This document shows positions 4,623 through 43,454 of a stretch of DNA of 64,000 bases, one piece after another. Positions within the stretch are counted from its first letter, which is position 1. Every line of letters starts with the position of its first letter. The notes under the pieces were generated by a model. That model saw only the letters and a program-made list of their open reading frames with translations, was not told the origin of the DNA and did no database searches. Source of the stretch: an uncultured Methanosarcinales archaeon (GTDB lineage Archaea; Nanobdellota; Nanobdellia; Woesearchaeales; DSVV01); assembly GCA_964453185.1 (NCBI GenBank), contig CAYVNN010000004.1, positions 128,706-192,705 on the forward strand, given 5' to 3'. The translations under genes and the position numbers were made by a program.

Positions 4623-5459
4623 ATGAAAGAAAGAGTTACTTTAACAATAGAAAATAGTATTCTTAATCAGGTTGATAGAAAAGTTGATGGATATAAAATA
4701 AAAAATAGGAGTCATGCAGTTGAATTATTATTATTAAAATCATTAGGTCAAAACAGGCCTAAGTTTGGTTTTATTCTTGCTGGTGGTCGAGGGACAAGGT
4801 TGAAACCAATCACAGATGAGATTCCAAAACCACTAGTTCCTTTACATGATAAACCAATCTTGGAACATACTTTGGATTTGTTTAAAAAGTTTGGAATAAA
4901 TAAGGTATTGTTATCAATTGGTTACAAAGGAGATAAAATTAAAGAATATTTTGGAAATGGAAAACGGTTTGGATTAAATATTACTTATATTGAGGAGAAA
5001 GAACCAATGGGAACAGGAGGTCCTTTGAATATTGCAAAATCTTTTTTAACAGATACTTTTGTAATGTGTAATGCTGATGAACTTAAAGATATTGATCTTG
5101 ATGAAATGTATTTATTTCATAAAGAAAATAATGCTGTTGCAACAATTGCATTAACAACAGTAGAAGATCCAAGTAAATATGGTGTTGCAAAATTAAGTGG
5201 AAATAAAATATTACAGTTTATTGAAAAACCACCTAAAGAAGAAGCACCATCTAAATTAATTAATGCTGGTTTATATATTTTAGAACCTTCTGTTTTGGAT
5301 TATCTTCCAGAAGGGAAATGTTCAGTTGAAAGAGATGTTTTTCCAAAAATTGCAGCAGATGGTAAAATGTATGGATATCATTTTAGTGGTCAATGGTTTG
5401 ATACAGGTAATCTAGAAAGATATGAGAAAGCAATAAAGGAGTGGAGAGATTTAGATTAA
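4623..5459 (+). CDS. Sugar-1-phosphate nucleotidyltransferase (NDP-sugar pyrophosphorylase) with an N-terminal ~45-aa RHH-like extension
   Basis: GFILAGGRGTRLKPIT...KPLVP signature of G1P thymidylyl/uridylyl/mannose-1-P guanylyl transferases from residue ~50. Preceded by VTLTIENSILNQVDRKV...NRSHAVELLL, a beta-strand/helix/helix pattern. Confidence 0.75.
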   Translation: MKERVTLTIENSILNQVDRKVDGYKIKNRSHAVELLLLKSLGQNRPKFGFILAGGRGTRLKPITDEIPKPLVPLHDKPILEHTLDLFKKFGINKVLLSIGYKGDKIKEYFGNGKRFGLNITYIEEKEPMGTGGPLNIAKSFLTDTFVMCNADELKDIDLDEMYLFHKENNAVATIALTTVEDPSKYGVAKLSGNKILQFIEKPPKEEAPSKLINAGLYILEPSVLDYLPEGKCSVERDVFPKIAADGKMYGYHFSGQWFDTGNLERYEKAIKEWRDLD

Positions 5460-5487
5460 TCTTTTCTTTTTTGAGGTGTTGTAAAAA

Positions 5488-6867
5488 ATGGTATTTCTTG
5501 ATAAAAGCATGTTTAGAGAATATGATATTAGGGGTATTGCAGATACCCAATTGAGTGATGAAGTTGTTGAATTAATTGGTAAGGCATATGGAACTTTTAT
5601 TGGTGGCAAAGAAGTAATTATTGCAATGGATAATAGAAAAAGTTCTGAGAGAATTAAGAATGCTTTGATTAAAGGTTTAATTTCTTGTGGTTGTGAAATT
5701 ATTGATATTGGTTTATCTATAGTTCCAATTCTTTATTTTGCAAGAAAACATTATGGGATTGATGGTGGTATAATGATTACTGCTTCCCATAATCCTAAAG
5801 AATATAATGGTTTCAAAATCTGTAAGGGTTTTGCAACTATTTTTGGGGATGATATTCAGAAATTAAGAAGGATTGCTGAAGAAGGTAAATTTTTAGAGAG
5901 ATCTTGTGGACAAGTTAGATATGAAGATCCAAAAGAAGCATATTATGATTTATTAAAAGAAAAAATTAAATTAAATAAAAAGTTTAAAGTTGTAGTTGAT
6001 TGTGGAAATGGAACCGCGAGTTTATTTGCAGCTGATGTTTTAAGAAATTGGGGCTGTGAAGTTGTTGAACTTTATTGTGATTCTGATCCTGATTTTCCAA
6101 ATCATCAACCGGATCCTGTGAAACTTAGTTGTGTTCAAGATTTAATTAAACTAGTGAAAGAACATAATGCTGATCTTGGTGTGGGTTTTGATGGAGATGG
6201 TGATAGATTAGGTGTTGTTGATAATGAAGGAAATATGATTTGGGGAGATATGATGCTTGTTTTATTTTTTAGAGAATTGTTAGCTAAATATCCTGGTGAA
6301 GAATGTATTATTGAGGTTAAATGTTCACAGTCATTGGTTGATGATGTTAGAGCTCATGGTGGTAATCCTGTATTTTTTAAGACTGGACATTCATTAATTA
6401 AAGATAAGATGATTAAAGATGATGCAAAATTAGCAGGTGAAATGTCTGGGCATATGTTTTTTAGAGATGAATTCATTGGAACAGATGATGCATTCTATGC
6501 AGCAGGAAGATTGTTGAGAATTATGGATAAATCTAATAAAAAATTATCTGAATTATTTTTAGATGTTCCAAAATATTATTCAACACCAGAAATGAGATTG
6601 TATTGTCCAGATGAGTATAAATTTGATATTACAAAACAAATTGTTGAATATTTTAAAGATAATGATGTTGAAGGAAAGAAAGATGTTATTGATGTTGATG
6701 GAGTCAGAATTGTTTTTAATGATGGTTGGGCTTTAGTAAGAACATCAAATACACAACCTGCATTAATTTTTAGATGTGAAGGTGTTTCAGAAGAAGCAAA
6801 AGAAAGGATAAAGAAATTAATGTTTGCAAAGTTAAAAGATTATCCTGAGATTAGTTTGGAAGAGTAA
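5488..6867 (+). CDS. Phosphomannomutase/phosphoglucomutase (alpha-D-phosphohexomutase)
   Basis: TASHNPKEYNGFK active-site Ser loop and GFDGDGDR metal-binding loop. Immediately downstream of the nucleotidyltransferase, so probably one operon. Confidence 0.85.
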   Translation: MVFLDKSMFREYDIRGIADTQLSDEVVELIGKAYGTFIGGKEVIIAMDNRKSSERIKNALIKGLISCGCEIIDIGLSIVPILYFARKHYGIDGGIMITASHNPKEYNGFKICKGFATIFGDDIQKLRRIAEEGKFLERSCGQVRYEDPKEAYYDLLKEKIKLNKKFKVVVDCGNGTASLFAADVLRNWGCEVVELYCDSDPDFPNHQPDPVKLSCVQDLIKLVKEHNADLGVGFDGDGDRLGVVDNEGNMIWGDMMLVLFFRELLAKYPGEECIIEVKCSQSLVDDVRAHGGNPVFFKTGHSLIKDKMIKDDAKLAGEMSGHMFFRDEFIGTDDAFYAAGRLLRIMDKSNKKLSELFLDVPKYYSTPEMRLYCPDEYKFDITKQIVEYFKDNDVEGKKDVIDVDGVRIVFNDGWALVRTSNTQPALIFRCEGVSEEAKERIKKLMFAKLKDYPEISLEE

Positions 6868-6895
6868 ACGTTTATATATTGTTAGATTCAGTTAA

Positions 6896-7056: not shown

Positions 7057-7085
7057 TATTGAAAACGCTGTTTGAGGTGAATATT

Positions 7086-8270
7086 ATGAAAAAAAGTTTT
7101 GTTATTATGTTAATAAGTGTATTAGTTTTGGCTATGTTCTTAAGTGGATGTAAAGAAGAAAGTGCTGAAGATTGTTTAGCAGATTGTTTAAAAGAATCAC
7201 AAGATAAGGCAACATGTAATCAACAATGTGGAATGGAGATGCTTGAAAAGCCAACAACACCACAAAAAGAACTTCCTCCCAAAGAAACAACTGAACCTGA
7301 ACCAGAAGTTCCTGAGAAAGTTGAAATAGAATGTAGGATTAATTCAGATTGTGATCAAAAACAAATATGTGAAGAGAGTGAATGTGTAGATGTTGATTGT
7401 AGAGAAAGACCAGATTGTGATGATGGATATTATTGTGAAGAATATGTTTGTATTGAGATTCCAATGCAAGGACCAAGTGATGAAGTGATTGATGATTGGA
7501 CTGATAAGATAATGGATCTTGAAGATTTGTTTGATGATATTTATGAAGATGCAGAAGATCTTTATGATTATTTATCTGATTCAGGTATTGAAGATGATGA
7601 CACATATGAAGATTATGAAGAGGATATTGATGAATTACTTGATGAAATTCAGACATTATTAGATGAGATTGATGAAAAACAAGATAATTTGACTGCAGAA
7701 TTAGGTTATGTTGAAACTTATGCTGATTTAGCAGATGTTAGAGATGAATATAATAGTTATCTGGATGAAATATCTGAATATAGAGAAGATTTTGTTGATG
7801 AAATGACTGATCAATTAGATAATATTGATGAAGCAGTTGGAGATTTAGAATGTACAAGTGATGATGATTGTACTGATGAATTTTGTGTTGATAATGTTTG
7901 TGTTGAATGTGAATCAGATGATGATTGTGATTCTGGATTTAGTTGTGATTCATACAGTTGTGTAGAAGATGCAACTGAAACAAATTGTTCAGATAGCACA
8001 GATGATGATTCAGATGGTTACACTGATTGTGCAGATTCTGATTGTGACGGAGTGGATGACTGTGAATACGATGAAGAGCTAACATGCGATGACAGTGTAG
8101 ATAATGATTCAGATGGTTATACTGATTGTGCAGATGAAGACTGTGATGGAGCAGATGATTGTGAATATGGTACAGAAGCAACATGTGATGACAGTATAGA
8201 CAATGATTCAGATGGAGATACTGATTGTGATGATTCAGACTGTGAGTCAGATACAAATTGTAGCTCATAA
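7086..8270 (+). CDS. Secreted/lipoprotein-like acidic Cys-rich protein with thrombospondin-type-3-like Asp-rich repeats
   Basis: MKKSFVIMLISVLVLAMFLSGC signal with a lipobox-like LSGC. SD gaggtga lies 6 nt upstream. The track start at 7044 overlaps the repeat stem and is probably wrong. Three or more tandem repeats CxDSxDNDSDGYTDCADxDCDGxDDCEY fit a DxDxDG calcium-binding pattern. Confidence 0.65.
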   Translation: MKKSFVIMLISVLVLAMFLSGCKEESAEDCLADCLKESQDKATCNQQCGMEMLEKPTTPQKELPPKETTEPEPEVPEKVEIECRINSDCDQKQICEESECVDVDCRERPDCDDGYYCEEYVCIEIPMQGPSDEVIDDWTDKIMDLEDLFDDIYEDAEDLYDYLSDSGIEDDDTYEDYEEDIDELLDEIQTLLDEIDEKQDNLTAELGYVETYADLADVRDEYNSYLDEISEYREDFVDEMTDQLDNIDEAVGDLECTSDDDCTDEFCVDNVCVECESDDDCDSGFSCDSYSCVEDATETNCSDSTDDDSDGYTDCADSDCDGVDDCEYDEELTCDDSVDNDSDGYTDCADEDCDGADDCEYGTEATCDDSIDNDSDGDTDCDDSDCESDTNCSS

Positions 8271-8300
8271 GTAATTAATTTCTTTTTTTCTTTATTTTTT
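8271..8300 (+). terminator. Oligo-T tract (archaeal intrinsic terminator) after the 7086 gene
   Basis: ttcttttttt ctttattttt directly after the stop codon. Confidence 0.4.
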
Positions 8301-8317
8301 ACAAAAGATTTATATAT
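8297..8317 (+). promoter_or_regulatory. BRE/TATA promoter TTTTACAAAAGATTTATATAT
   Basis: Identical extended motif to 2661 and 56703. About 50 nt upstream of the start at 8365. Confidence 0.55.
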
Positions 8318-8364
8318 TTTAAATATAAAAATTCTATTATAATTAAAACTTGAGGTGTTTATTC

Positions 8365-10191
8365 ATGAACGATAAATTTAAGAAATTTATGGTGTTTAAA
8401 AGTTTTTCAAACTTTATAAACAATAAAAAGGTATTAGTTTCTGTATTGATTATAATTAGTTTAATGTTTTTAATGGGACAGGTTAGTTGTAGTCCTATGT
8501 CTTTAATATGTACTTCTGATGAAGAAGGTGGAACACAATGTGATGATGGTTATGTTTATGAATGTGTGTTTGAATCAGGTACATATGTATGGGAATCAAC
8601 TGGTTCAACATGTGAATATGATACTGAATCTGATTGTACAAATTCAACAGATGACGACGACGACGGTTATACTGATTGTGCAGATCCTGACTGTGATGCA
8701 TTAACTGGTCCAAGTGGAGAAACCTGTGAATATGGTGCAGAAACAACATGTACTGATACATATGATAATGATGCAGATGGTTCTGCAGATTGTGATGATA
8801 CTGATTGTAGTACTGATAGTAGTTGTTGTACTGCAACAGAAACTACTGAAGCGACATGTGATGATTCAGTAGATAATGATTGTGATGGTACTACTGATTG
8901 TTCAGATAGTGATTGTTCAGCTGTTGATGTATGTTTAAGTGCAGAATGTACATTAGATTCCGAATGTGAAACATTATATGGAACTGGTTATATTTGTAAT
9001 ACTTCAGGTTATTGTGAATTAAGTACAACAGAGGATAATACAACAAATACAACAACTGAAGATTGTACCAATGGAGTAGATGATGATAATGATAGTTTAG
9101 TTGATTGTAATGATACAACTGATTGTCCATGTGATTCAGGATATAGTTGTAATACAACAAGCGCATTGTGTGAATTAGATTCAACTACAACTACAGAAAA
9201 TTGTACTAATTCAACAGATGATGATGGAGATGGAGATATAGATTGTGCTGATTCTGATTGTAATGCGTCAACTGGTTCAAGTGGAGAAACATGTGAATAT
9301 GGAACAGAGTTAACATGTAATGATGGTTATGATAATGATGGTGATGATTTAATTGATTGTTTTGACGATGATTGTAGTAGTTATACTACTTGTGATCTGA
9401 TCAATGCTTTTGCTAATTATGAAGCAGTAAGTACTGATCCTGATAATAGTATTTTATCATGTGATGCTGCATGTGCAGAAGAAGGATTGATTTGTGTACA
9501 AACAGAAGCATATAAGGATACAAGTTCTTCTTATGATGCTACTGGTTTGTTAGGATCAAAAAATTTTAATTTGAATTGTAGTTATGAAGCTGAACATGGT
9601 TATACTTATAGATGTAAATGTGTTGATTTAAGTAGTTATTCAGATCTTGCAACAACACTTTCAGGTCATAGTTTATATGCTACTAATTCAAGTTGTAATT
9701 ATGTTTGTGGAGCTAATTCAAAATTATGTGTTCATGCAGAAAAGGCTAGAATGAATGATAGTATTTATGATTATACTGGTGTTACAAGTAGTTGTTCATC
9801 ATCAGGATCAACTAAAGTAACCATGGTTGATCTTCCGTTAATAACTGGTGCAGCGGTTGTAAATGATAGTGACTCACCAATTCCAGAAGCAGAAAAGATG
9901 GATACAACTTCACATAATTATACAAAGCATTGTAGTTGTGTAGATGAACTTTCAGATTATTCTGAGTTTTTAACTCTATTGAATGATTATGATTATGATC
10001 TTACAGATCCTAGTAATGCTGATGAAGATACTTGTGATGAGGTATGTAATGATATGGATAAATTCTGTATAGGGGTTGAAGCATATACCGATAGTAGCAA
10101 TATAACATTTAGTTTTACTGGTGCATTGGGTTATAGGTCTAGAACTTGTGATTATGAATCATCAACTATAAATAGATGCAAGTGTATCTAA
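8365..10191 (+). CDS. Large secreted acidic Cys-rich surface protein: TSP3-like repeats plus a triplicated C-terminal ~75-aa six-Cys module
   Basis: Start MNDKF... follows SD gaggtg; the track start at 8350 is less likely. Signal/TM segment VLVSVLIIISLMFLMGQVSC. Repeats such as CTNSTDDDDDGYTDCADPDCD. Three C-terminal modules ending ...YTYRCKCV / NRCKCI. Paralog of the 10303 ORF. Confidence 0.65.
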   Translation: MNDKFKKFMVFKSFSNFINNKKVLVSVLIIISLMFLMGQVSCSPMSLICTSDEEGGTQCDDGYVYECVFESGTYVWESTGSTCEYDTESDCTNSTDDDDDGYTDCADPDCDALTGPSGETCEYGAETTCTDTYDNDADGSADCDDTDCSTDSSCCTATETTEATCDDSVDNDCDGTTDCSDSDCSAVDVCLSAECTLDSECETLYGTGYICNTSGYCELSTTEDNTTNTTTEDCTNGVDDDNDSLVDCNDTTDCPCDSGYSCNTTSALCELDSTTTTENCTNSTDDDGDGDIDCADSDCNASTGSSGETCEYGTELTCNDGYDNDGDDLIDCFDDDCSSYTTCDLINAFANYEAVSTDPDNSILSCDAACAEEGLICVQTEAYKDTSSSYDATGLLGSKNFNLNCSYEAEHGYTYRCKCVDLSSYSDLATTLSGHSLYATNSSCNYVCGANSKLCVHAEKARMNDSIYDYTGVTSSCSSSGSTKVTMVDLPLITGAAVVNDSDSPIPEAEKMDTTSHNYTKHCSCVDELSDYSEFLTLLNDYDYDLTDPSNADEDTCDEVCNDMDKFCIGVEAYTDSSNITFSFTGALGYRSRTCDYESSTINRCKCI

Positions 10192-10211
10192 TTTTTTCTT
10201 TTATTTTTCTT

Positions 10212-10230
10212 TTTTACAAAAGTTTTAAAT
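10212..10230 (+). promoter_or_regulatory. BRE/TATA-like promoter TTTTTACAAAAGTTTTAAATAG
   Basis: Same TTTTTACAAAAG leader as the sibling promoters, with a degenerate TATA. Confidence 0.4.
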
Positions 10231-10302
10231 AGTATAATATGTGTAAATTATATTTAAATAGTCATAATTATATATTAAATAAAAACTTTGAGGTGTTTAG
10301 AT

Positions 10303-12318
10303 ATGGATAAAAAGATTGTAATTTCTATTTTAGTTATAATTAGTTTAATGTTTTTAATGGGACAAGTGGGTTGTACAACTCCTTCGTTTTCATTGATTTG
10401 TACAGGTGATCAGGAAGGAGAAACTGATTGTTTAAGTGGGTATACATATGAATGTTCATTTGATGCATTTGGTAATTATGTATGGGAATCAACTGGTTCA
10501 ACATGTGAAGCATTTGAGAATGAAACTTTAGATTTAAGTGTTGCAGATGTTGATTTTGATCCTGTAGATCCTATTATTAGTGAAAATATAAGTGTATGGG
10601 CTAATATTACTAATGATGGTAATACTTCTGTTACATATGATGAAATGACAATTGCTTTATATGATATTACTTCAACATCAACTTTATTACAAGAATTAAT
10701 TGTATCTGATCAAACAGGAACAGGAGATTTTGCTTCAGGTGAATCTGTCTTAGTAACATTTGATGTATTTAGTTATAGTGCAAATGGTACATATGAATTA
10801 CAAGTTTACTTAGATCCAACAAATCAACTTGGAGAAGCAATCAGGAGTGATAATTCATACAGATATATTTATGTTACAGTTGGAGATGGAGTGAGTGATA
10901 ATACAACAACTGTTATTGAAACTTGTAGTGATGGAATACAAAATCAAGATGAAACTGGTGTTGATTGTGGAGGAAGCGTTTGTAGTGCATGTACAACTAG
11001 TACAAGTGCAGATCTTGGATCATTTAATGTGACTGATGTAACAAATCTTGCTTCATCAGATCCAACAGCAATTGAAAATAAATTGTATATATACACAAAT
11101 GAAAGTACATCAACAATTGGTAATCTTGATTCGTCTAATGTGTATTCTGATTATGATACACATAATCCTAGTTCAGCATCACCATTGGTGTTCGGTGTTT
11201 CTTATCTTGGTGATTCTAGTCAACAAATTGTTTTAGTTCAAGCAGATGTTGGAAATCTTTATGTTTTTTTACCTGACATGGTTTATTCATCTGGTACATT
11301 AAAATTATTTGTTGCAGAGAATGGTTCAACATATTATGCAGATGATGCACATGATGGTTCAGGAACAGCTTTAGGTGTTGAAGAAGCATTAGTTTCAGAT
11401 CATTTAGCAAGACAGGCAGAACAATCATATGAATGTTATAATGATGCATTTTGTGAAGCATTGTATGGAACTACTTATGATTGTAATACTACTAGTTATG
11501 TCTGTGAACCAGAAATAGTAGGTCCAGAGAATTGTACAAATTTAGTTGATGATGATAGTGATTTATTAGTTGATTGTGATGATAGTGATTGTAACAGTGA
11601 ATGTTTAGAGGGAGTTTATAGTACATATATGGTTTCTAATACTGACCCAAGTAACTCTTCGTTAAACTCATGTAATGAGGTTTGTGATAATTTGGGAGGA
11701 TTAACTTGTATGCATGTTGAAACCTATGTTGATAATTCTGGTGCTTATACAGATGGTACTGGTTTATTGGGTGGTGGAAATAGAGATTTAAATTGTAGTT
11801 TTGAACCTTCCTATGATTATACATATAGATGTGGGTGTTTAGAATTAAGTAGTTATTCTAATTTAAGTGTAGATACTTCAAATTTTGAATTAAAACAAGC
11901 AAGTACTTCTAGATCATGTGATGAAAGATGTGCAGATGTTGGAATGATATGTACACACGCAGAAATGGATAAATATGATGGTAATCTCTTAGATTATTCT
12001 GGTGTTATTATTAATTGTTCAGTAGTTGATACTGAATATAATAAACATTGTAAATGTGTTCAAGAAACAACAGGTTATGAGGATTTTTTAACTTTGTTAA
12101 ATGGTTATAGTGTTGTTGTTTCTGATCCAAATAACACTAGTATGAATTCATGTGATGAAGCATGTACAACAATTGGAAAAGAGTGTATTGGTGTTGAGAA
12201 TTATTTATCAACTTCTGGTGTGGTTATGAGTGAGACTGGTTTAGTTTACTATGCATCGTCACATCCAGATTATTGCTCTATGTCTTATTATTATTACTTT
12301 AATTGTAAGTGCATCTAA
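10303..12318 (+). CDS. Large secreted Cys-rich surface protein with a CARDB-like domain, a CSDGIQNQDETGVDCGG motif and the triplicated C-terminal six-Cys module
   Basis: Start MDKKIVIS... after SD gaggtg. The N-terminus is conserved with the 8365 protein (…GYTYECSF…VWESTGSTCE). The CARDB-like segment is DLSVADVDFDPVDP...GEAIRSDNSYRYIYV. The C-terminal 3x module ends FNCKCI. Confidence 0.65.
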   Translation: MDKKIVISILVIISLMFLMGQVGCTTPSFSLICTGDQEGETDCLSGYTYECSFDAFGNYVWESTGSTCEAFENETLDLSVADVDFDPVDPIISENISVWANITNDGNTSVTYDEMTIALYDITSTSTLLQELIVSDQTGTGDFASGESVLVTFDVFSYSANGTYELQVYLDPTNQLGEAIRSDNSYRYIYVTVGDGVSDNTTTVIETCSDGIQNQDETGVDCGGSVCSACTTSTSADLGSFNVTDVTNLASSDPTAIENKLYIYTNESTSTIGNLDSSNVYSDYDTHNPSSASPLVFGVSYLGDSSQQIVLVQADVGNLYVFLPDMVYSSGTLKLFVAENGSTYYADDAHDGSGTALGVEEALVSDHLARQAEQSYECYNDAFCEALYGTTYDCNTTSYVCEPEIVGPENCTNLVDDDSDLLVDCDDSDCNSECLEGVYSTYMVSNTDPSNSSLNSCNEVCDNLGGLTCMHVETYVDNSGAYTDGTGLLGGGNRDLNCSFEPSYDYTYRCGCLELSSYSNLSVDTSNFELKQASTSRSCDERCADVGMICTHAEMDKYDGNLLDYSGVIINCSVVDTEYNKHCKCVQETTGYEDFLTLLNGYSVVVSDPNNTSMNSCDEACTTIGKECIGVENYLSTSGVVMSETGLVYYASSHPDYCSMSYYYYFNCKCI

Positions 12319-12342
12319 ACTTTTTTTCTTTTCTTTTTTTCG
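12319..12342 (+). terminator. Oligo-T terminator
   Basis: actttttttcttttcttttttt after the stop. Confidence 0.4.
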
Positions 12343-19405: not shown

Positions 19406-20085
19406 TTGATATATTTATGTGGTGTTTTTCTGGTGGTTAATGTAGGTAAAGTAGAGGATATTGAGTTAAATTGTAAGACTGCTTATTTAGCAGGAGTTAT
19501 TATTGGCGATGGTCATATATCTAATTCAACTAAGTCAAAGTTAGATTTATTAAGGATTATAAAATTGTTATTGATATTGCAGATAAAAATTTTCTTTATT
19601 GTCTTTATAATATGATTAAAACTATGATTTTAACTAAAAGTATTCCAAGACCAACAAAAATTAGAGGAAATCGAAAAGAACGGTGGTGTTTTCAGTTTAG
19701 AAACAAATCATTTTACTTTTTCCTTACTGGATACTTAGGGATAATAGCTGGCTCAAAAAGTTCATTTGTTAGAATGCCTTTGAAAATTAAAAATGCAAAT
19801 ATTAGGTTAAAAAAATATTTCTTAGCAGGATTATTTGATACTGATGGTGGTTTTAGAGGTAATTCTCTTGGATTTACAACTGCAAGTAAAGACTTAAATA
19901 AGGATGTTCATGATTTATTGGATGAATTATTAATCAGACATAGTCTTGATAAATGGGAAAATAAAAAATATGGAAAATTTTATTATGGGATTAGAATTGC
20001 TAAGTCTGAAATAGATAATTTTTTAAATAAGGTGCCTATACAAAACAAAGAAAAGTTGAAAAGAATCCGTTCCAGATTCCCTTGA
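19406..20085 (+). pseudogene. LAGLIDADG homing endonuclease (two LAGLIDADG motifs) interrupted by a frameshift
   Basis: Motif 1 YLAGVIIGDGHI is in frame 2 (19406-19615). Motif 2 FLAGLFDTDGGF is in frame 1 (19612-20085). The frame change lies near the A5 run at about 19584. The stop TGA (20083-85) overlaps position 1-2 of the downstream tRNA. Confidence 0.55.
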
Positions 20086-20727: not shown

Positions 20728-23199
20728 ATGCGAGTAAATAAAACAATTAAGAAGATTGCTTCTGTAGGAGTAGCAGTCGGAATGGTTGGCGCAACCTTAA
20801 TGGGAGCGGCAATGGCAGCAGACCTCAGCGAATACCCGTATATGTTTATCGAAGACGGAAACTTTAATGGGTTATTGGTAGTAGGAGCTGATGCAAGAGC
20901 AGAAGATATTATTGGAATAACTAATATCGCAACAAGCTTACAGACAGTATCTGTTAAAACAACAGTAGTTAGTTCTGGTGCAGGAAGCAGTTCAGATAGA
21001 GTGACTGTGACTGATGGAGTAGAACTATGTGATAGAGATCTATTTGTAGGTCAAGCAATCTCTGGTTGTGAAGCAAGTGTCGATGATGCAGAATTACCTG
21101 ATTTATTAGGTGATGATATTTATCATGACGCAGAAGGAGATAATGACAATGATGAAAGGTATACACAAGAAGTCTTGTTCCAAACAAACGTAACAGGTGT
21201 TTTTAAGTTTGATCAAGATGACGATGATGCACCAGTTGCAGATACATATGTCTTCATAGACGACTCAAATGCTTACTTCTATAATTATACATTGAAGTTT
21301 GATGATAGAGCAGACTATGATAATACATCTTCAACAACTGCAGCAGACGATATTGAAGGAACAACACTAACTATTCAAGGAAGAGAATACACAATTACAG
21401 ATGTTAAGGTTTCATCAGGTCAGTTATCTGAAATTGAGATGCAGGCTGGAGAAACAGTTGTCTGGATGAGTGAAGGAGAAACAGTTGATAGAACAGTTGA
21501 TGGTGTAAGTCATTCAATTGAAATGATTGACGTTACAGGCGATGCAACAGAAAGCACAGGTTCATGTGGTTTCAAAATTGATGGAACAACAGCATGGATT
21601 GATGTTGATGATACAGACACAATAAATGGTGTTACAATTGGTGTTATCGATGCAAAAGCTGTTAATATTGAAGCACAAGACCAGGATGTATGTAAGGTTG
21701 TAATCGGAGCTCATGAAATTAAGTTAGTTGATACAGACGAACTTGAAATTAATGATGAAGATGTAGATGGAACATACTGTGAAATTTCAGAAAAAACAAC
21801 AGCATCTGAAGGAAGATGGAGTGGATTTAGTATTTCATTTGCCCCAGACTTAGATGAAGTATATTTAGGACCTGGAGATGAGTATATTGATCCAATCTTA
21901 GGAAACTTCAAATTTGTATTTGGTGGAGTTAACACAGGCGGAATTGAAACCTTTGAATGGGTAACAGGCAGTACAAGCGGTTATCTAAGATTCTCTAATG
22001 AGGATGGAAGAGAAGTTGAAATTCCACTATGTGCAGATGAAAATTCACCTGGATATGATAGTAGTGAAGCTTCAAATGAGCCAGTATATTTAGGTGACGA
22101 TGCTCCAACAACAAGTGACAATAATGAAGACAAAGCATTATATCTTGAAGGTGAAGTTTGTAGTGGAAGTAGTTCAGATGTTTCAAATTGTGTAGGTGCA
22201 ATGTTTTTAGTAATTACATCAACAACAAATGAAGCACACATAGTTGAAATTACAAACATTGATACAAATGACAACCAAATGGACTTTAGAGACTTAACAT
22301 ATGGAACAGAAGACAAAGATTTGGACTATACAAATGGAACAGATATGGGCTTTGCTTTAAGTGGTGGTGTTGGTACCATTAACTTGTCAGTTGATGAATC
22401 AGCAGGAATCATTAATTTTACAAGTACTGGAACAGCATCTGGTGCAACAATTGAAACACTTGAAGAAGCATCATTGGCTATTTTGAACTCAGATCTTGTT
22501 AACCAAACATATGAAGGATGGAACTTCTCTGAAGGAAATGATGGTGACATCAATGTATATCTATCTGATTATACTGTATATGCAGTCTATGATGATTCAG
22601 ATGATAGTACCATTGAATTCAATCATACAACATTGAGTACAACAGATGGATATGGTTGGGCAGATGAAAGTTCTGACAATGATGACTTTGTAAAGTTCTA
22701 TACATTGAAAGGTTCTTTGATTACATATGACCAAGAAGACAAACAAAGTTTAGTAATTGAACATCCACACGATGCAGTATATGCAGAAGTGTATATAGCT
22801 CCAACAGATGCTGATACACTTGAAGTTGCAGATGAAGGCGCTGTAAGTGAAGAAGTTCAAAAGATCAGTGTTAATGCAGTTAAGCTGGACTCCGAAGTAA
22901 CAAGTGTTACAGATAAAAACATTGTTGCAGTAGGTGGACCATGTGCTAACTCAGTTGTTGCTGAATTAATGGGCAACCCAGCTGAATGTGAAACATCACT
23001 AGGCATTAGCAGTGGACAAGCTTTGATTAAGTTGTACGAAAACGGTGACTATGTAGCAGTTGTTATTGCAGGTCAAGACGCTATGGATACCAGATTAGCA
23101 TGTCAGATTATGTCTAACTGGGATGACTACAGCTTGACAGGCGACGAAATGGTTGCAACCACAGTTAGTGAAAGCAGCTTAAGCGTAACAGCTCAATAG
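20728..23199 (+). CDS. S-layer-like major surface (glyco)protein
   Basis: Signal peptide MRVNKTIKKIASVGVAVGMVGATLMGAAMAADL. Very acidic, Thr/Ser/Asn-rich 823-aa protein. The C-terminal …IVAVGGPCANSVVAELMGNP… resembles the methanogen S-layer C-terminal domain. Locally higher GC and a strong SD suggest high expression. Confidence 0.6.
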   Translation: MRVNKTIKKIASVGVAVGMVGATLMGAAMAADLSEYPYMFIEDGNFNGLLVVGADARAEDIIGITNIATSLQTVSVKTTVVSSGAGSSSDRVTVTDGVELCDRDLFVGQAISGCEASVDDAELPDLLGDDIYHDAEGDNDNDERYTQEVLFQTNVTGVFKFDQDDDDAPVADTYVFIDDSNAYFYNYTLKFDDRADYDNTSSTTAADDIEGTTLTIQGREYTITDVKVSSGQLSEIEMQAGETVVWMSEGETVDRTVDGVSHSIEMIDVTGDATESTGSCGFKIDGTTAWIDVDDTDTINGVTIGVIDAKAVNIEAQDQDVCKVVIGAHEIKLVDTDELEINDEDVDGTYCEISEKTTASEGRWSGFSISFAPDLDEVYLGPGDEYIDPILGNFKFVFGGVNTGGIETFEWVTGSTSGYLRFSNEDGREVEIPLCADENSPGYDSSEASNEPVYLGDDAPTTSDNNEDKALYLEGEVCSGSSSDVSNCVGAMFLVITSTTNEAHIVEITNIDTNDNQMDFRDLTYGTEDKDLDYTNGTDMGFALSGGVGTINLSVDESAGIINFTSTGTASGATIETLEEASLAILNSDLVNQTYEGWNFSEGNDGDINVYLSDYTVYAVYDDSDDSTIEFNHTTLSTTDGYGWADESSDNDDFVKFYTLKGSLITYDQEDKQSLVIEHPHDAVYAEVYIAPTDADTLEVADEGAVSEEVQKISVNAVKLDSEVTSVTDKNIVAVGGPCANSVVAELMGNPAECETSLGISSGQALIKLYENGDYVAVVIAGQDAMDTRLACQIMSNWDDYSLTGDEMVATTVSESSLSVTAQ

Positions 23200-32542: not shown

Positions 32543-32678
32543 GGGCCTGTAGCTTAGTCTGGTTGGAGCGCTGGTCTTATATGGCTTCGTTTCATACAAG
32601 AAATTGGCTCTGAGTGAGCCAGTGGTCGTGAGAGGTCATCTTTTAGATGATTCACGAATTCAAATCTCATCAGGCCCA
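32543..32678 (+). tRNA. tRNA-Ile (UAU) with two introns (37/38, 35 nt; 53/54, 26 nt)
   Basis: GGGCCUG-UA-GCUU-AGUCUGGUUG-GAGC-G-CUGGU-CUUAUA[35 nt]A-GCCAG-UGGUC-GUGAG[26 nt]UUCAAAU-CUCAU-CAGGCCC-A. All helices pair. An oligo-T follows. Confidence 0.65.
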
Positions 32679-33397: not shown

Positions 33398-35230
33398 TTA
33401 ACTTAGGATTACTCCATAAGTAACACTATTATCAAATGGATCACAAAATAAATCAACCTCATTACCATCCCATCTAACATAAGGGTCACAGCCGTAAACA
33501 GGATACCCGTTCACTAGATCACTAGAATAAGTAGTACTCGTCCCAACATAAGAGATATACTCAACATCATTAGATATTCTAGACACCTCATTACAAAATC
33601 CTTCAGGTTGATCTTCATGAGAAGCAATTTCTTCTCTAGAGTAACCCATCAATTGATTTCTGTTAAGGTCAACAAAATGAAATGCATTATCGTTAGGGAA
33701 CAACACCGCTAACCAATTATGACCTGATGTTCCATCAGATGAAACAACTGACCATACACTATCAGAATCAAAACCCATTTTCCTTAACAAAGTTAAACCT
33801 GTCATACTTTTACCGATACAATTACCTGATTCCATAATATTAGACATTACATGAACTGGTTGAGGAGACATCCAACAATAATTTCTATCCATATTATAAT
33901 CGTTAGTCCAGCCAGTACCACTGAAACAATCATTAATACCATTAAATAGATAACCTTCATAATCATTACTTTCCCTTACATCAGAACTATAGCAAGGGGG
34001 TGCTTTACATTCTAAACCTTCAGTGTAAGGACTGTTAGCACCTTCAGTACCACAATAACCATCAGTTTGACAATCATCTCCACCATAGTCATAACGCAAA
34101 TACCTTCTTTCAGGGACAGGGTTAGAACTAGCTTTAATATAATATAATCCACGGCAAGCTGTTAAGTCACCACCATAATAATTGTCAGCTTCATCTCTTG
34201 CCCAATCACAAGTTGAATAATCAGATGATTCGTGGTCATTATTAAACAAGCCTAAACAACAATCAGACGCTTCTTCAACAATGTAATCTAACTCTTCAGA
34301 ACAGATTTCCATAACGTCGCATTTTGGTGCACAGACATCATTACCAAAATAGATGAATGTACCATCACCATTTGGCCAAACATCAGTGCAACCAGAATCT
34401 GAAGGGGCATATTTGCTGTTAGTGTTACAAACAGTATTACACGGTGCACAAGAACCACCACAATCAATCCCTTCTTCATCTTGGTTCTGGATATTATCTG
34501 AACAAGATTCAAAGTCATTTATACTTAAACAATCACAGTTAGGGTCACATCTTAATCCTGATCCACAGATATCACCTGGTTGTTTATCATCACATTTATT
34601 ATCAGCACCACAATCTTCAGAACAGACTGGCTGGCCAACCATTCCATCGACACGATCTTTTATCATTGCAGTGTCCCAAATACAAGTTGAAACAGGAGAA
34701 TCAATTGAACTAGTAGTTTTAGCACCAGACATACTAGCATCTATTATGTCAAGGTACCATTGTCTTCCACCATCATCATCATAATAAACTAATCCAACTG
34801 AATCATAATTATTATGATTGATGTTTAATGTAACTTTTGAACCAATCACTTCAAAGGGGATATATTGAAATATCTCTCCATCTTTTACCAAAACAAAGTT
34901 AGATTCATCCCTATATGTTTTATAATTATCAAACTCAGAACTAGATAAACTGTGCTGGACATAATTACTTAATACTGTACTTTCATAACTAAGATCGCCT
35001 GTTGCAAGTTTTTTTTCTATATCATAATTATCGCTAGTTTCATGATCCATATCTGTTGCTAAATTATCATCAAAATCTTCCAAGCCAAACCCATCTACTT
35101 GGACTGATGTAGCTTCGCCAGCGATGTTTGAATCAGCATCAAAAAAGAATAAAAATAAAGTGCCAATTATCAGAACTGATATTACTAAAATAATTGAATA
35201 ATATTTTTTTAAAGGGGATCTATCTATCAT
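33398..35230 (-). CDS. Secreted transglutaminase-like (cysteine protease fold) Cys-rich protein
   Basis: N-terminal TM/signal. Core ESGNCIGKSMTGLTLLRKMGF…GHNWLAVLF…D fits the transglutaminase-like Cys-His-Asp triad pattern (GxCxxfA…R..GIP…HAW). CSDNIQNQDEEGIDCGGSCAPC is shared with the 10303 protein. Confidence 0.6.
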   Translation of the reverse strand: MIDRSPLKKYYSIILVISVLIIGTLFLFFFDADSNIAGEATSVQVDGFGLEDFDDNLATDMDHETSDNYDIEKKLATGDLSYESTVLSNYVQHSLSSSEFDNYKTYRDESNFVLVKDGEIFQYIPFEVIGSKVTLNINHNNYDSVGLVYYDDDGGRQWYLDIIDASMSGAKTTSSIDSPVSTCIWDTAMIKDRVDGMVGQPVCSEDCGADNKCDDKQPGDICGSGLRCDPNCDCLSINDFESCSDNIQNQDEEGIDCGGSCAPCNTVCNTNSKYAPSDSGCTDVWPNGDGTFIYFGNDVCAPKCDVMEICSEELDYIVEEASDCCLGLFNNDHESSDYSTCDWARDEADNYYGGDLTACRGLYYIKASSNPVPERRYLRYDYGGDDCQTDGYCGTEGANSPYTEGLECKAPPCYSSDVRESNDYEGYLFNGINDCFSGTGWTNDYNMDRNYCWMSPQPVHVMSNIMESGNCIGKSMTGLTLLRKMGFDSDSVWSVVSSDGTSGHNWLAVLFPNDNAFHFVDLNRNQLMGYSREEIASHEDQPEGFCNEVSRISNDVEYISYVGTSTTYSSDLVNGYPVYGCDPYVRWDGNEVDLFCDPFDNSVTYGVILS

Positions 35231-40292: not shown

Positions 40293-42209
40293 ATGGATAT
40301 TGATAAATTATTGAATAGAATAAGAGAATATAATCCTAATGCAGACATTAAGTTAATTAAGAAATCATATGATGTTGCTTTGAAAGCGCATAAAGGACAG
40401 AAGAGGGAGTCAGGAGAGCCTTATATTTCTCATCCATTGAATGTTGCTAAGATTTTAACAGAACTTAAAGCAGATTCTGCTACAATCAGTGCAGCTTTAT
40501 TACATGATGTTGTTGAAGATACTAATGTGTCTATGGATAAAATAAAAAAAGATTTTGGTGAAGAGGTTGCAACTATTGTAGAAGGGCTAACTAAGATTGA
40601 TAAGATTCATTTTGAAACAAAAGAAGATTATAGTGCTGAAAATTTAAGAAAGGTTCTTTTGGCAACTACTAAAGATATTAGAGTTATGTTAGTTAAGTTA
40701 GCAGATAGATTACATAATATGTCTACATTAAAAAATTTTAGAACAGATAAACAAAAAAGAATTGCAACTGAAACTTTAGAGATTTATGCTCCTATTGCAC
40801 ATAAACTTGGAATGTGGAATATGAAAGGAGAATTAGAAGATTTATCTTTAAGATATCTTAAACCAGACGTATATAGATTTCTTGCAGATAACATTAGTGG
40901 GAAAAGGCAAGAAAGAGAAAAAACAACAAAAGAAATTATTAAATTAATTAACAAAAAATTAAAAGAAAAAAATATTACTGCAGAAATTTATGGAAGAGCA
41001 AAATATTTCTTAAGTATATATAAAAAAATGCAGAAAAAGAATCTTGATATTGATGAGATTTATGATTTAATTGCAGTAAGGATAATTACTCAAACAATTC
41101 CTGAATGTTATGGTGCACTAGGTGTTGTTCATGATTTATGGAGACCTTTACCACATAGGTTTAAAGATTATATCTCTGTTCCAAAAGCTAATGGTTACCA
41201 GAGTTTACATACTACTGTTATCACAAAAGATGGGAGAAAATTAGAAGTACAAATTAGGACAGAAGATATGCATCAGATGGCTGAAGTTGGTGTTGCAGCT
41301 CATTGGAAATATCAAGGTACTGAGAGAGATAAACAGTTTGATAAAAGAATTTCTTGGTTAAAGCAAGTTTTAGATTGGAAAAGAGGATCAGATGATGCAA
41401 AAGACTTTATTGAATCGTTTAAAATAGATTTATTCCACGACGAGATTGTTGTCTTTACACCAAAAGGAGATCCAATTTCATTACCTGTAGGATCATCACC
41501 TATTGATTTTGCTTATGCTGTTCATAGTAATGTAGGTAAACAATGTTCATCAACAAAGATTAATAATAAAATGGTTCCTTTGGATACTGAATTAAAGTCA
41601 GGGGATATTATTGAGATAATCACACAGAAAAATGCTAAACCTTCAAGACAATGGTTGAAATTTGTTAAGACAGGGAAAGCAAGAAATAAGATAAGAGCAG
41701 CATTAAATATAAAATCGGAATTAGATCCTAAAAAGGGAAGATTAAGAAAAGAAATGATACAGGCATCTGAAGAAAAGGTTGTTGATCAAATTATAATTGA
41801 AGGAAAGAAAAAAGGTCAGGTTAAATTTTCAAAATGTTGTAATCCAAGGTATGGGGAAGAAATTGTAGCATTTTTTACAAAAGATAAGAAAATTACTGTT
41901 CATAAAAAGACCTGTCCTAATATTTATACTTTAGATAAGAATAAAGAAATTAAAATTAAATGGAAAGTAAGAAGAACAAAGGAACAATATTTAATTGTTA
42001 TTTCTATAGGAGATAGGTTAGGGTTAATGTCTGAGATATTGAATGTTTTTGTTAAGCATAGAATTAATTTAACTGCGATAAACACAAAGGCAAAGAAAGA
42101 CCATGTTGTTATTAAGATTAATATTGATAAGATTGCTAGGAATGTGGTTGATGATTTAATTATTGATATTAAGAAGCTAAGTGATGTTATGGATGTTGCA
42201 TTGAGCTAG
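40293..42209 (+). CDS. rel: Bifunctional (p)ppGpp synthetase/hydrolase, long RelA/SpoT homolog (HD-SYNTH-TGS-ACT)
   Basis: HD domain HKGQKRESGEPYISHPLNVAKIL…AALLHDVVEDT. Synthetase YGRAKYFLSIYKKM…DLIAVRIITQ…KANGYQSLHTTV. TGS EIVVFTPKGDPISLP…GDIIEIIT. C-terminal ACT-like domain. Confidence 0.85.
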   Translation: MDIDKLLNRIREYNPNADIKLIKKSYDVALKAHKGQKRESGEPYISHPLNVAKILTELKADSATISAALLHDVVEDTNVSMDKIKKDFGEEVATIVEGLTKIDKIHFETKEDYSAENLRKVLLATTKDIRVMLVKLADRLHNMSTLKNFRTDKQKRIATETLEIYAPIAHKLGMWNMKGELEDLSLRYLKPDVYRFLADNISGKRQEREKTTKEIIKLINKKLKEKNITAEIYGRAKYFLSIYKKMQKKNLDIDEIYDLIAVRIITQTIPECYGALGVVHDLWRPLPHRFKDYISVPKANGYQSLHTTVITKDGRKLEVQIRTEDMHQMAEVGVAAHWKYQGTERDKQFDKRISWLKQVLDWKRGSDDAKDFIESFKIDLFHDEIVVFTPKGDPISLPVGSSPIDFAYAVHSNVGKQCSSTKINNKMVPLDTELKSGDIIEIITQKNAKPSRQWLKFVKTGKARNKIRAALNIKSELDPKKGRLRKEMIQASEEKVVDQIIIEGKKKGQVKFSKCCNPRYGEEIVAFFTKDKKITVHKKTCPNIYTLDKNKEIKIKWKVRRTKEQYLIVISIGDRLGLMSEILNVFVKHRINLTAINTKAKKDHVVIKINIDKIARNVVDDLIIDIKKLSDVMDVALS

Positions 42210-43313: not shown

Positions 43314-43454
43314 GGGCCGTTAGCTCAGCCTGGTACTTTGTAAGTATTCAAAGCTTTATCGGCAGGAAAGAGCACTGCACTTTTAACAAAGACTGGAACT
43401 TTCAACCAGTTGAAAGTGATGCAGGTGTCGCGAGTTCGAATCTCGTACGGCCCA
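43314..43454 (+). tRNA. tRNA-Lys (UUU) with two introns (D-loop ~34 nt; anticodon 37/38 33 nt)
   Basis: GGGCCGU-UA-GCUC-AGCCUGGUA[intron]-GAGC-A-CUGCA-CUUUUA[ACAAAGACUGGAACUUUCAACCAGUUGAAAGUG]A-UGCAG-GUGUC-GCGAG-UUCGAAU-CUCGU-ACGGCCC-A. Confidence 0.65.

Follow-up and report, generated by a model that had tools for sequence, protein, structure and literature searches.

A gene cluster from a probable DPANN archaeon encodes predicted envelope proteins with teneurin-like acidic repeats and a rare triplicated six-cysteine module

The cluster of three consecutive genes described here lies in a 64-kb stretch of DNA (from contig CAYVNN010000004.1; the whole stretch is called the window below) and encodes the proteins P1, P2 and P3, which probably belong to a known kind of protein, the modular calcium-binding surface proteins of prokaryotes. 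The new part is a rare module with six cysteines (Cys), present in three tandem copies at the C-terminal end of P2 and P3, together with the relationship of the acidic repeats to the C-rich domain of teneurins. The explanation that in our opinion best joins the evidence, and which we regard as probable with some reserve, is that the three are exported envelope proteins stiffened by Ca2+, in which the triple module would form the distal, ligand-binding end.

The acidic repeats and the teneurin C-rich domain

Acidic repeats framed by Cys are found three times in P1, six times in P2 and once, in degenerate form, in P3, with four Cys per unit of ~32 amino acids (aa). An earlier note, made from the DNA sequence without database searches, had read them as calcium-binding repeats of the thrombospondin type 3 kind. 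Membership in Pfam TSP_3 (PF02412, cutoff 25 bits) was ruled out, because a hidden Markov model (HMM) search of P1–P3 gave no match at E ≤ 1. The repeats are instead recognized by the NCBIfam model NF033662 (acid_disulf_rpt, acidic double-disulfide repeat; curated cutoff 41 bits), which matches P1 in three stretches with 44.6 bits and P2 in six stretches with 115.8 bits. A literature search with the name of this family found no paper.

The search of PDB sequences led to teneurins. With phmmer, aa 85–344 of P2 matched the 49-residue C-rich domain of Teneurin-4 (7PLP) with E = 3.8e-4, and a profile of 18 repeats (A6) gave 13 matches, all of which were teneurin C-rich domains (E from 2.7e-8 to 0.02), with thrombospondin absent among them. 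In the reverse direction, the NF033662 model, derived from prokaryotic sequences, gives human teneurin-4 44.9 bits, which is above its own cutoff. By sequence, the repeats of P1 and P2 thus belong to an already known family that is homologous to the teneurin C-rich domain, and the prokaryotic NF033662 repeat and the teneurin domain can be regarded as one family.

The C-rich domain of teneurin-4 was solved at 1.5 Å with three octahedrally coordinated Ca2+, whose ligands are E835, D840, D843, N844, D845, D847, D851, D854 and D856; two of its Ca sites, I and II, are described as resembling thrombospondin type 3 repeats (Meijer et al. 2022, PMC9058538). Six repeats of the window retain the full set of nine ligand positions (E, D, D-N-D, D, D, D, D), and three more retain seven to eight. 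The spacing is C-x13-C-x4-C-x5-C in the six complete repeats and C-x13-C-x4-C-x5(-10)-C over nine units. Of the earlier reading, the thrombospondin-like calcium mechanism therefore stands, and only the family assignment does not. With teneurins, the archaeal repeats share the Cys spacing, the ligand positions and the reciprocal HMM matches; with thrombospondin type 3 repeats they share the DxDxDGxxDxxD calcium loop framed by disulfides, although the TSP_3 model does not match them and their profile does not find thrombospondin structures. They differ from the teneurin domain in two respects. While the latter has six Cys that form three disulfides (1–3, 2–5, 4–6), the archaeal units have four Cys without equivalents of C858 and C869, so that two disulfides are expected and the third pair of teneurin (C858–C869) is missing. 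Moreover, the units stand in tandem arrays of 3–6, whereas each teneurin has a single copy. The homology predicts up to three bound Ca2+ and two stabilizing disulfides for each ~30-aa unit. We consider Ca2+ binding a well-supported prediction; a row of such units would make a stalk that is stiffened by calcium and resists proteases.

The C-terminal six-Cys module

P2 (aa 345–608) and P3 (aa 435–671) both end, as the earlier note had described, in three tandem units of 71–106 aa (~75 aa) with the framework C-x3-C-x6/7-C-x21-30-C-x9-11-C-x-C. The exception is module 2 of P2, in which the fourth gap is 45 residues long owing to an insert of 35 aa. The module occurs nowhere else in the window by tblastn and has no sequence match in Pfam, NCBIfam or the PDB. 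An exhaustive HMMER search of 1.84 billion protein cluster representatives returned four proteins only: P2 (via a near-identical representative), P3, P0007 (673 aa, NCBI assembly GCA_964452935.1) and P0008 (645 aa, several metagenomes). A word-indexed search for homologs of the C-terminal region came back empty on both occasions and missed even the query's own protein, which is a cluster representative in that collection; its negatives are therefore unreliable and we relied on the exhaustive search. Scans of metagenome contigs for relatives found none.

P0007 and P0008 have a signal, NF033662 repeats (48.4 and 64.6 bits) and the triple module as the closing part. In all four proteins the triple module follows directly on an acidic repeat and is placed at the extreme C-terminus, and all four genes lie in one genomic slot, between PGM/PMM (phosphoglucomutase/phosphomannomutase) and the genes for Rpp14, proteasome alpha and SBDS (and exosome). 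When all 12 modules are aligned, the invariant columns comprise five Cys, a Glu and a Gly; no module lacks the sixth Cys, which is shifted by a single column in one module. Modules that occupy equivalent positions in different proteins are 35% identical, compared with 27% for modules from different positions, which suggests that the triplication is old and predates the divergence of the four proteins. The slot of a relative (L089, ENA ERZ4231641; JGI 3300072015 contig) holds six genes for secreted proteins (457, 398, 616, 662, 645 and 613 aa), compared with three here. Among these paralogs are true TSP_3 repeats (39 bits) and CARDB (24.0 bits), and one protein joins true TSP_3 repeats to a C-terminus resembling a beta-propeller. 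From its gene content, the PGM–Rpp14 slot behaves as an expandable surface-protein locus. The TSP3-repeat cohesion proteins of the Myxococcus MtsC type (NF047638), named for cell-cell cohesion, are likewise prokaryotic surface proteins made of acidic Ca-binding repeats. The likeness is limited: neighbours of P0008 match NF047638 partially with 30–97 bits, far under its cutoff of 350 bits, P1–P3 do not match it, and the MYXO-CTERM sorting signal of MtsC-type proteins is not found in the window proteins.

An AlphaFold2 model of the whole triple module from a two-sequence alignment was unusable, with a predicted local distance difference test (pLDDT) score of 44. For a single module (P3 module 1) with the 12-module alignment, pLDDT was 74.8 and the predicted template modelling (pTM) score 0.66. 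In the model, a first strand is followed by a helix with the CxxxC motif, then by a long strand and a last strand with the CxC motif. In our view the module more likely than not shares its fold with the accessory domain, rich in Cys, at the C-terminus of the N-acetylglucosaminyltransferase GnT-V/MGAT5, which is our one candidate for a structural relative. The three Cys pairs of MGAT5 that would correspond to the module are presumably 649–724, 653–726 and 660–713 (C1–C5, C2–C6, C3–C4). Cystine-knot growth factors (VEGF/PlGF) were considered and rejected (best E = 0.23 with profile A1 and 1.0 with profile A4), as was the cysteine-stabilised (CS) alpha/beta fold of defensins and scorpion toxins, since no fold match to defensins or toxins was found.

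The accessory domain of MGAT5 (G628–L741) holds five of the eight disulfides of the enzyme (Nagae et al. 2018, PMC6107550; structures PDB 5ZIB, 6YJR). Its sequence, checked against the PDB, reads SC649KQVC653QESQLIC660 ... C713 ... C724PC726, which is the framework of the module, and MAFFT places all six module Cys in common columns with C649, C653, C660, C713, C724 and C726, with an MGAT5 insertion of ~29 residues. Aligned by hhalign, the module profile and MGAT5 628–741 share 28 columns with P = 0.0022, and the local score of 21.6 exceeds those of all 160 shuffles with fixed Cys (mean 10.9, sd 2.4, max 18.1). The two differ in that the MGAT5 domain has an extra disulfide in the ~29-residue insert and a C-terminal CxxC tail; it is also a single copy fused to a GT-B glycosyltransferase of the animal Golgi, whereas the archaeal module is triplicated.

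Several results weigh against this relationship. By sequence it is weak, with an hhalign probability of 12.9%; single modules did not match Pfam PF15024 (GT18), whose C-terminal 128 positions cover the domain, at E ≤ 10; Foldseek found nothing significant in the PDB and BFVD; and the single-module model is of medium confidence with a poor long loop (residues ~45–65). Furthermore, no function is assigned to this domain in the papers on MGAT5, so that none can be transferred from it to the archaeal module. That the resemblance arose by convergence or is an accident of modelling, in which case the module would be a new fold without solved relatives, has in our estimation only slightly less than an even chance; this would affect the fold classification only. 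The earlier claim that the module cannot be placed in a known family therefore holds at the level of sequence and is modified by the structural candidate. As far as sequence can tell, the module is a real and very rare domain family without family assignment and with one structural lead.

The gene cluster, its organism and its surroundings

The three genes are confirmed as consecutive open reading frames (ORFs) on the plus strand exactly where the earlier note had placed them (Table 1). Independent metagenome gene callers called the same genes on nine JGI and ENA contigs (source samples JGI 3300009374/75 and ENA ERZ23499064), which are at least 99.9% identical to the window; from this identity, the window stems from a near-clonal environmental population and lies on a contig of ~192 kb (JGI 3300009374, Ga0118720_1000028).

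Table 1 Features of the cluster in the window. Domain, promoter and leader assignments are predictions.
Feature	Position	Strand	Basis or remark
BRE/TATA-like box of P1, AAACGTTTATATA	6866..6878	+	strict pattern match, 207 nt before ATG
Predicted structured 5' leader of P1	6895..7075	+	transcript start inferred; MFE −46.9 kcal/mol
P1, 394 aa	7086..8270	+	signal (lipoprotein-type), 4-Cys segment, Pro/Glu/Thr linker, Cys-rich repeats, acidic coiled-coil-like region, three acidic repeats
P1 signal with lipobox L-S-G-C (Cys22)	7086..7151	+	sequence and hydropathy
P1 acidic helical coiled-coil-like segment (aa 135–257)	7488..7856	+	weak sub-threshold matches to many coiled-coil families
P1 three teneurin-C-rich-like predicted Ca2+ repeats (aa 298–394)	7977..8267	+	C-x13-C-x4-C-x5-C; 9/9 ligand positions each
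Oligo-T tracts after P1 (T7, T6)	8283..8300	+	
BRE/TATA-like box of P2, AAAGATTTATATA	8304..8316	+	strict pattern match, within block common to P2–P3 spacer
P2, 608 aa	8365..10191	+	signal, 4-Cys N-domain, six acidic repeats, triple module
P2 acidic repeat region (aa 88–343)	8626..9393	+	broken by 4-Cys 'CTLDSECETLYGTGYICNTSGYC' unit and Thr/Asn-rich linker
P2 module 1	9397..9624	+	
P2 module 2	9625..9942	+	35-aa insert between Cys4 and Cys5
P2 module 3	9943..10188	+	end ...RCKCI, then stop
Oligo-T tracts after P2 (T6, T5, T6)	10192..10215	+	
BRE/TATA-like box of P3, AAAGTTTTAAATA	10219..10231	+	strict pattern match, within block common to P1–P2 spacer
P3, 671 aa	10303..12318	+	signal, 4-Cys N-domain, CARDB-like, CGG mini-motif, unassigned region, 4-Cys unit, degenerate acidic repeat, triple module
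P3 CARDB-like domain (aa 77–186)	10531..10860	+	PF07705 21.4 bits vs cutoff 22.7, E = 3e-4, profile positions 3–99 of 101
P3 mini-motif CxDGxxNxDETGVDCGGxxCxxC, CSDGIQNQDETGVDCGGSVCSAC (aa 205–230)	10915..10992	+	C-x13-C-x4-C as in acidic repeat; 4/9 ligand positions
P3 degenerate acidic repeat (aa 408–434)	11524..11604	+	NF033662 20.6 bits; 7/9 ligand positions
P3 module 1	11605..11841	+	the one modelled
P3 module 2	11842..12060	+	
P3 module 3	12061..12315	+	end ...NCKCI
Oligo-T tracts after P3 (T7, T7)	12321..12340	+	

All three proteins are acidic and rich in Cys, with an isoelectric point of ~4.05, a Cys content of 8.4% (P1), 9.0% (P2) and 5.2% (P3) and an Asp plus Glu content of 36%, 21% and 16%, respectively. 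Each has one hydrophobic segment, which is N-terminal and preceded by Lys residues (Kyte-Doolittle windows of 19 residues, mean > 1.6), in agreement with the export proposed in the earlier note. A classical lipobox, [LVI][ASTVI][GAS]C, closes the hydrophobic region of the signal in prokaryotic lipoproteins. P1 has the canonical LSGC, as has the relative P0008; judged by its signal, P1 is probably a lipoprotein with a lipid anchor and not, as the earlier note had it, simply a protein with a signal peptide. C-terminal membrane or sortase-type anchors (PGF-CTERM, transmembrane helix) were ruled out, since only N-terminal windows exceed 1.6 and P2 and P3 end in ...CKCI. The N-x-S/T sequons are about twofold enriched compared with shuffled sequences in the three proteins (16 vs 7.9, 17 vs 9.5 and 5 vs 1.3; P = 0.001–0.006), which fits extracellular glycoproteins. 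A surface location of P1–P3 is in our opinion a well-supported prediction from these properties.

In P3, the CARDB domain suggested by the earlier note is covered by almost the full profile and scores just under its cutoff, so that we call it CARDB-like. The CGG mini-motif of P3, which no Pfam or NCBIfam model covers, recurs in an unannotated 610-aa ORF of the window (33398–35230, minus strand). A scan of genome contigs with P3 gave 78 loci in Bacteroidota, candidate phyla radiation (CPR) bacteria and DPANN archaea; all of them match only this ~30-aa motif (aa 201–235), and the triple module was found in none.

The earlier note had assigned to each gene its own promoter and terminator. We scanned the window with the strict pattern AAANNTTTAWATA for a B recognition element and TATA box (BRE/TATA) and found six matches, compared with 1.76 expected, three of which precede P1, P2 and P3 (6866, 8304 and 10219). 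The spacers P1–P2 and P2–P3 have in common the block TTTTTTACAAAAG[A/T]TTTA ... TTGAGGTGTTTA. GAGGTG stands 6–8 nt before each ATG (7074–7079 for P1, 8352–8357 for P2, 10290–10295 for P3), and two or three runs of T5–T7 follow each stop codon. A scan for sigma-70 promoters and intrinsic terminators gave background counts; this model is not applicable to archaea. From these consensus matches, a promoter and a terminator for each gene is a fair reading, with the qualification that the box of P1 is far from its ATG, which implies a long leader. The ~180 nt of this region fold with a minimum free energy (MFE) at z = −3.3, none of 200 shuffled sequences folding equally well, and have no Rfam family match; they might serve as a leader that regulates P1 or represent a small RNA of their own.

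The organism is supported by sequence as a DPANN archaeon of the Woesearchaeota/Nanoarchaeota type, in accordance with the archaeal origin proposed earlier. The closest named homologs of RpoA' from the window, with 71–76% identity, are from metagenome-assembled genomes of Candidatus Woesearchaeota and Nanoarchaeota, and archaeal hallmarks in the window are Rpp14, proteasome alpha, exosome genes, LSM, L37e, split RpoB and a surface-layer (S-layer) protein with PF05124. A small genome would be expected from this lineage. The gene for the S-layer protein (823 aa; 20728–23199, plus strand) lies 8 kb downstream of the cluster; just upstream of it is a free-standing LAGLIDADG_3 ORF (19612–20085, plus strand). 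Upstream neighbours of the cluster (4623–6867, plus strand) encode a sugar-nucleotidyltransferase and PGM/PMM, an order that is retained in the 28.5-kb contig of a relative; these genes for sugar activation may be linked to the sequon-rich proteins P1–P3. A foreign genomic island was ruled out because the GC content of 0.31–0.32 resembles that of the flanks, and a viral origin because a scan of viral contigs found no relatives. Elsewhere in the window, a 638-aa long RelA/SpoT homolog with HD, RelA_SpoT, TGS and ACT domains (40293–42209, plus strand) is unusual for an archaeon, and two Rfam tRNA matches of 141 and 136 nt without ARAGORN call (43314–43454 and 32543–32678, both plus strand) are probably archaeal tRNAs that contain introns.

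Orientation on the cell and possible function

We propose that P1–P3 belong to the cell envelope of an archaeon of the Woesearchaeota type, which has a gene for an S-layer protein as well, and that the three are transcribed separately, exported and probably N-glycosylated. P1 would be tethered via the Cys of its lipobox. P2 and P3 would begin with a related signal followed by the conserved 4-Cys domain, and carry at the opposite end the triple module, in which each ~75-aa alpha/beta unit would be held by three disulfides. Because P0008 joins a canonical lipobox to the triple module, the module is favoured as the distal, ligand-binding end; its likeliest target would be a glycan or a protein on the surface of a partner cell. 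DPANN archaea presumably rely on contact with other cells, and the putative adhesion to a host or partner cell, also suggested by the earlier note, is plausible for the lineage. We are more doubtful about the stronger claim that the triple module is both a true prokaryotic homolog of the C-terminal domain of animal GT18 (MGAT5) and, with the teneurin-type Ca2+ arrays, the partner-cell adhesin of a narrow Woesearchaeota lineage; taken as a whole we think this rather unlikely. Besides the points on the fold given above, three observations count against the model proposed for P1–P3. P3 has a single Ca repeat, which is degenerate and stays below the NF033662 cutoff. The signals of P2 and P3 share ...LMFLMGQV[S/G]C and end in QVSC and QVGC, with a non-canonical Q at −3. 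Finally, P2 and P3 resemble each other in the N-terminal 4-Cys domain (65–67% identical) and in the C-terminal triple module but differ in the middle, a pattern that would fit a conserved anchoring module equally well.

The triple module could indeed be the cell-proximal part, bound non-covalently to the S-layer or envelope glycan of the own cell like the triplets of bacterial S-layer homology (SLH) domains, with the Ca repeats and CARDB facing outward. Paralogous surface proteins usually pair shared anchoring modules with variable passenger domains, and here the number of three modules, their extreme C-terminal position and the orthology at each position are conserved in four proteins with differing upstream regions. 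SLH triplets, which are an analogy only, are also three tandem terminal modules of ~55–75 aa common to otherwise different surface proteins. The nearby S-layer gene and the missing canonical lipobox of P2 and P3 would agree with such an anchor. However, SLH domains are without disulfides, neither they nor any known anchoring domain have sequence or fold similarity to the archaeal module, and the family is too rare for a general anchoring device. The lipobox of P0008 suggests an N-terminal tether and a free C-terminus in a protein with the triple module. We therefore regard C-terminal anchoring as unlikely, and slightly more so than the combined claim on MGAT5 and adhesion.

Two other readings of the Cys-rich modules are unlikely to a greater degree. 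P1–P3 might be released as soluble effectors in which the Cys-stabilised helix and strand of the module act as a defensin- or toxin-like warhead on a scaffold of Ca repeats, as in polymorphic toxins. CxxxC in a predicted helix and CxC in the last strand are reminiscent of the CS-alpha/beta motif, the C-terminal position is that of polymorphic toxins, and the gene after P0007 matches Ntox17 (E = 0.011). This match is very weak and falls far short of the threshold, the module, in its three copies, is conserved by position and not polymorphic, and no immunity-like small ORF follows P3, all of which makes the effector reading quite improbable. It appears even less probable that the Cys are ligands of metals (Zn, Fe or Fe-S) and that P1–P3 bind metals or act in redox reactions outside the cell, as would suit a habitat poor in oxygen. 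In favour of this are the very high Cys content and the ability of CxxxC and CxC motifs to bind metals. However, the His/Cys patterns expected for Fe-S or Zn fingers are absent, and no cofactor family matches. In the teneurin C-rich domain, the solved homolog of the repeat, these Cys are in disulfides, and the C-terminal domain of MGAT5 likewise holds five disulfides (PMC6107550).

In conclusion, we regard the cluster as a well-characterised lead rather than the discovery of a mechanism, since the links to teneurin and MGAT5 establish no function. To our knowledge, very few surface proteins of DPANN archaea have a structural or mechanistic annotation. The locus offers a concrete, testable architecture, in which stalk units with a solved animal homolog that binds three Ca2+ end in a lineage-restricted triple module. 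For domain evolution, the NF033662 repeat and the teneurin C-rich domain are newly linked as one family, and the C-terminal domain of MGAT5 may have an archaeal relative. If both the homology to MGAT5 and the role as adhesin were true, one extracellular protein would contain archaeal relatives of two disulfide-rich modules known until now from secretory-pathway and cell-surface proteins of animals, and the orphan C-terminal domain of MGAT5 would gain its first functional context, as a binding module.

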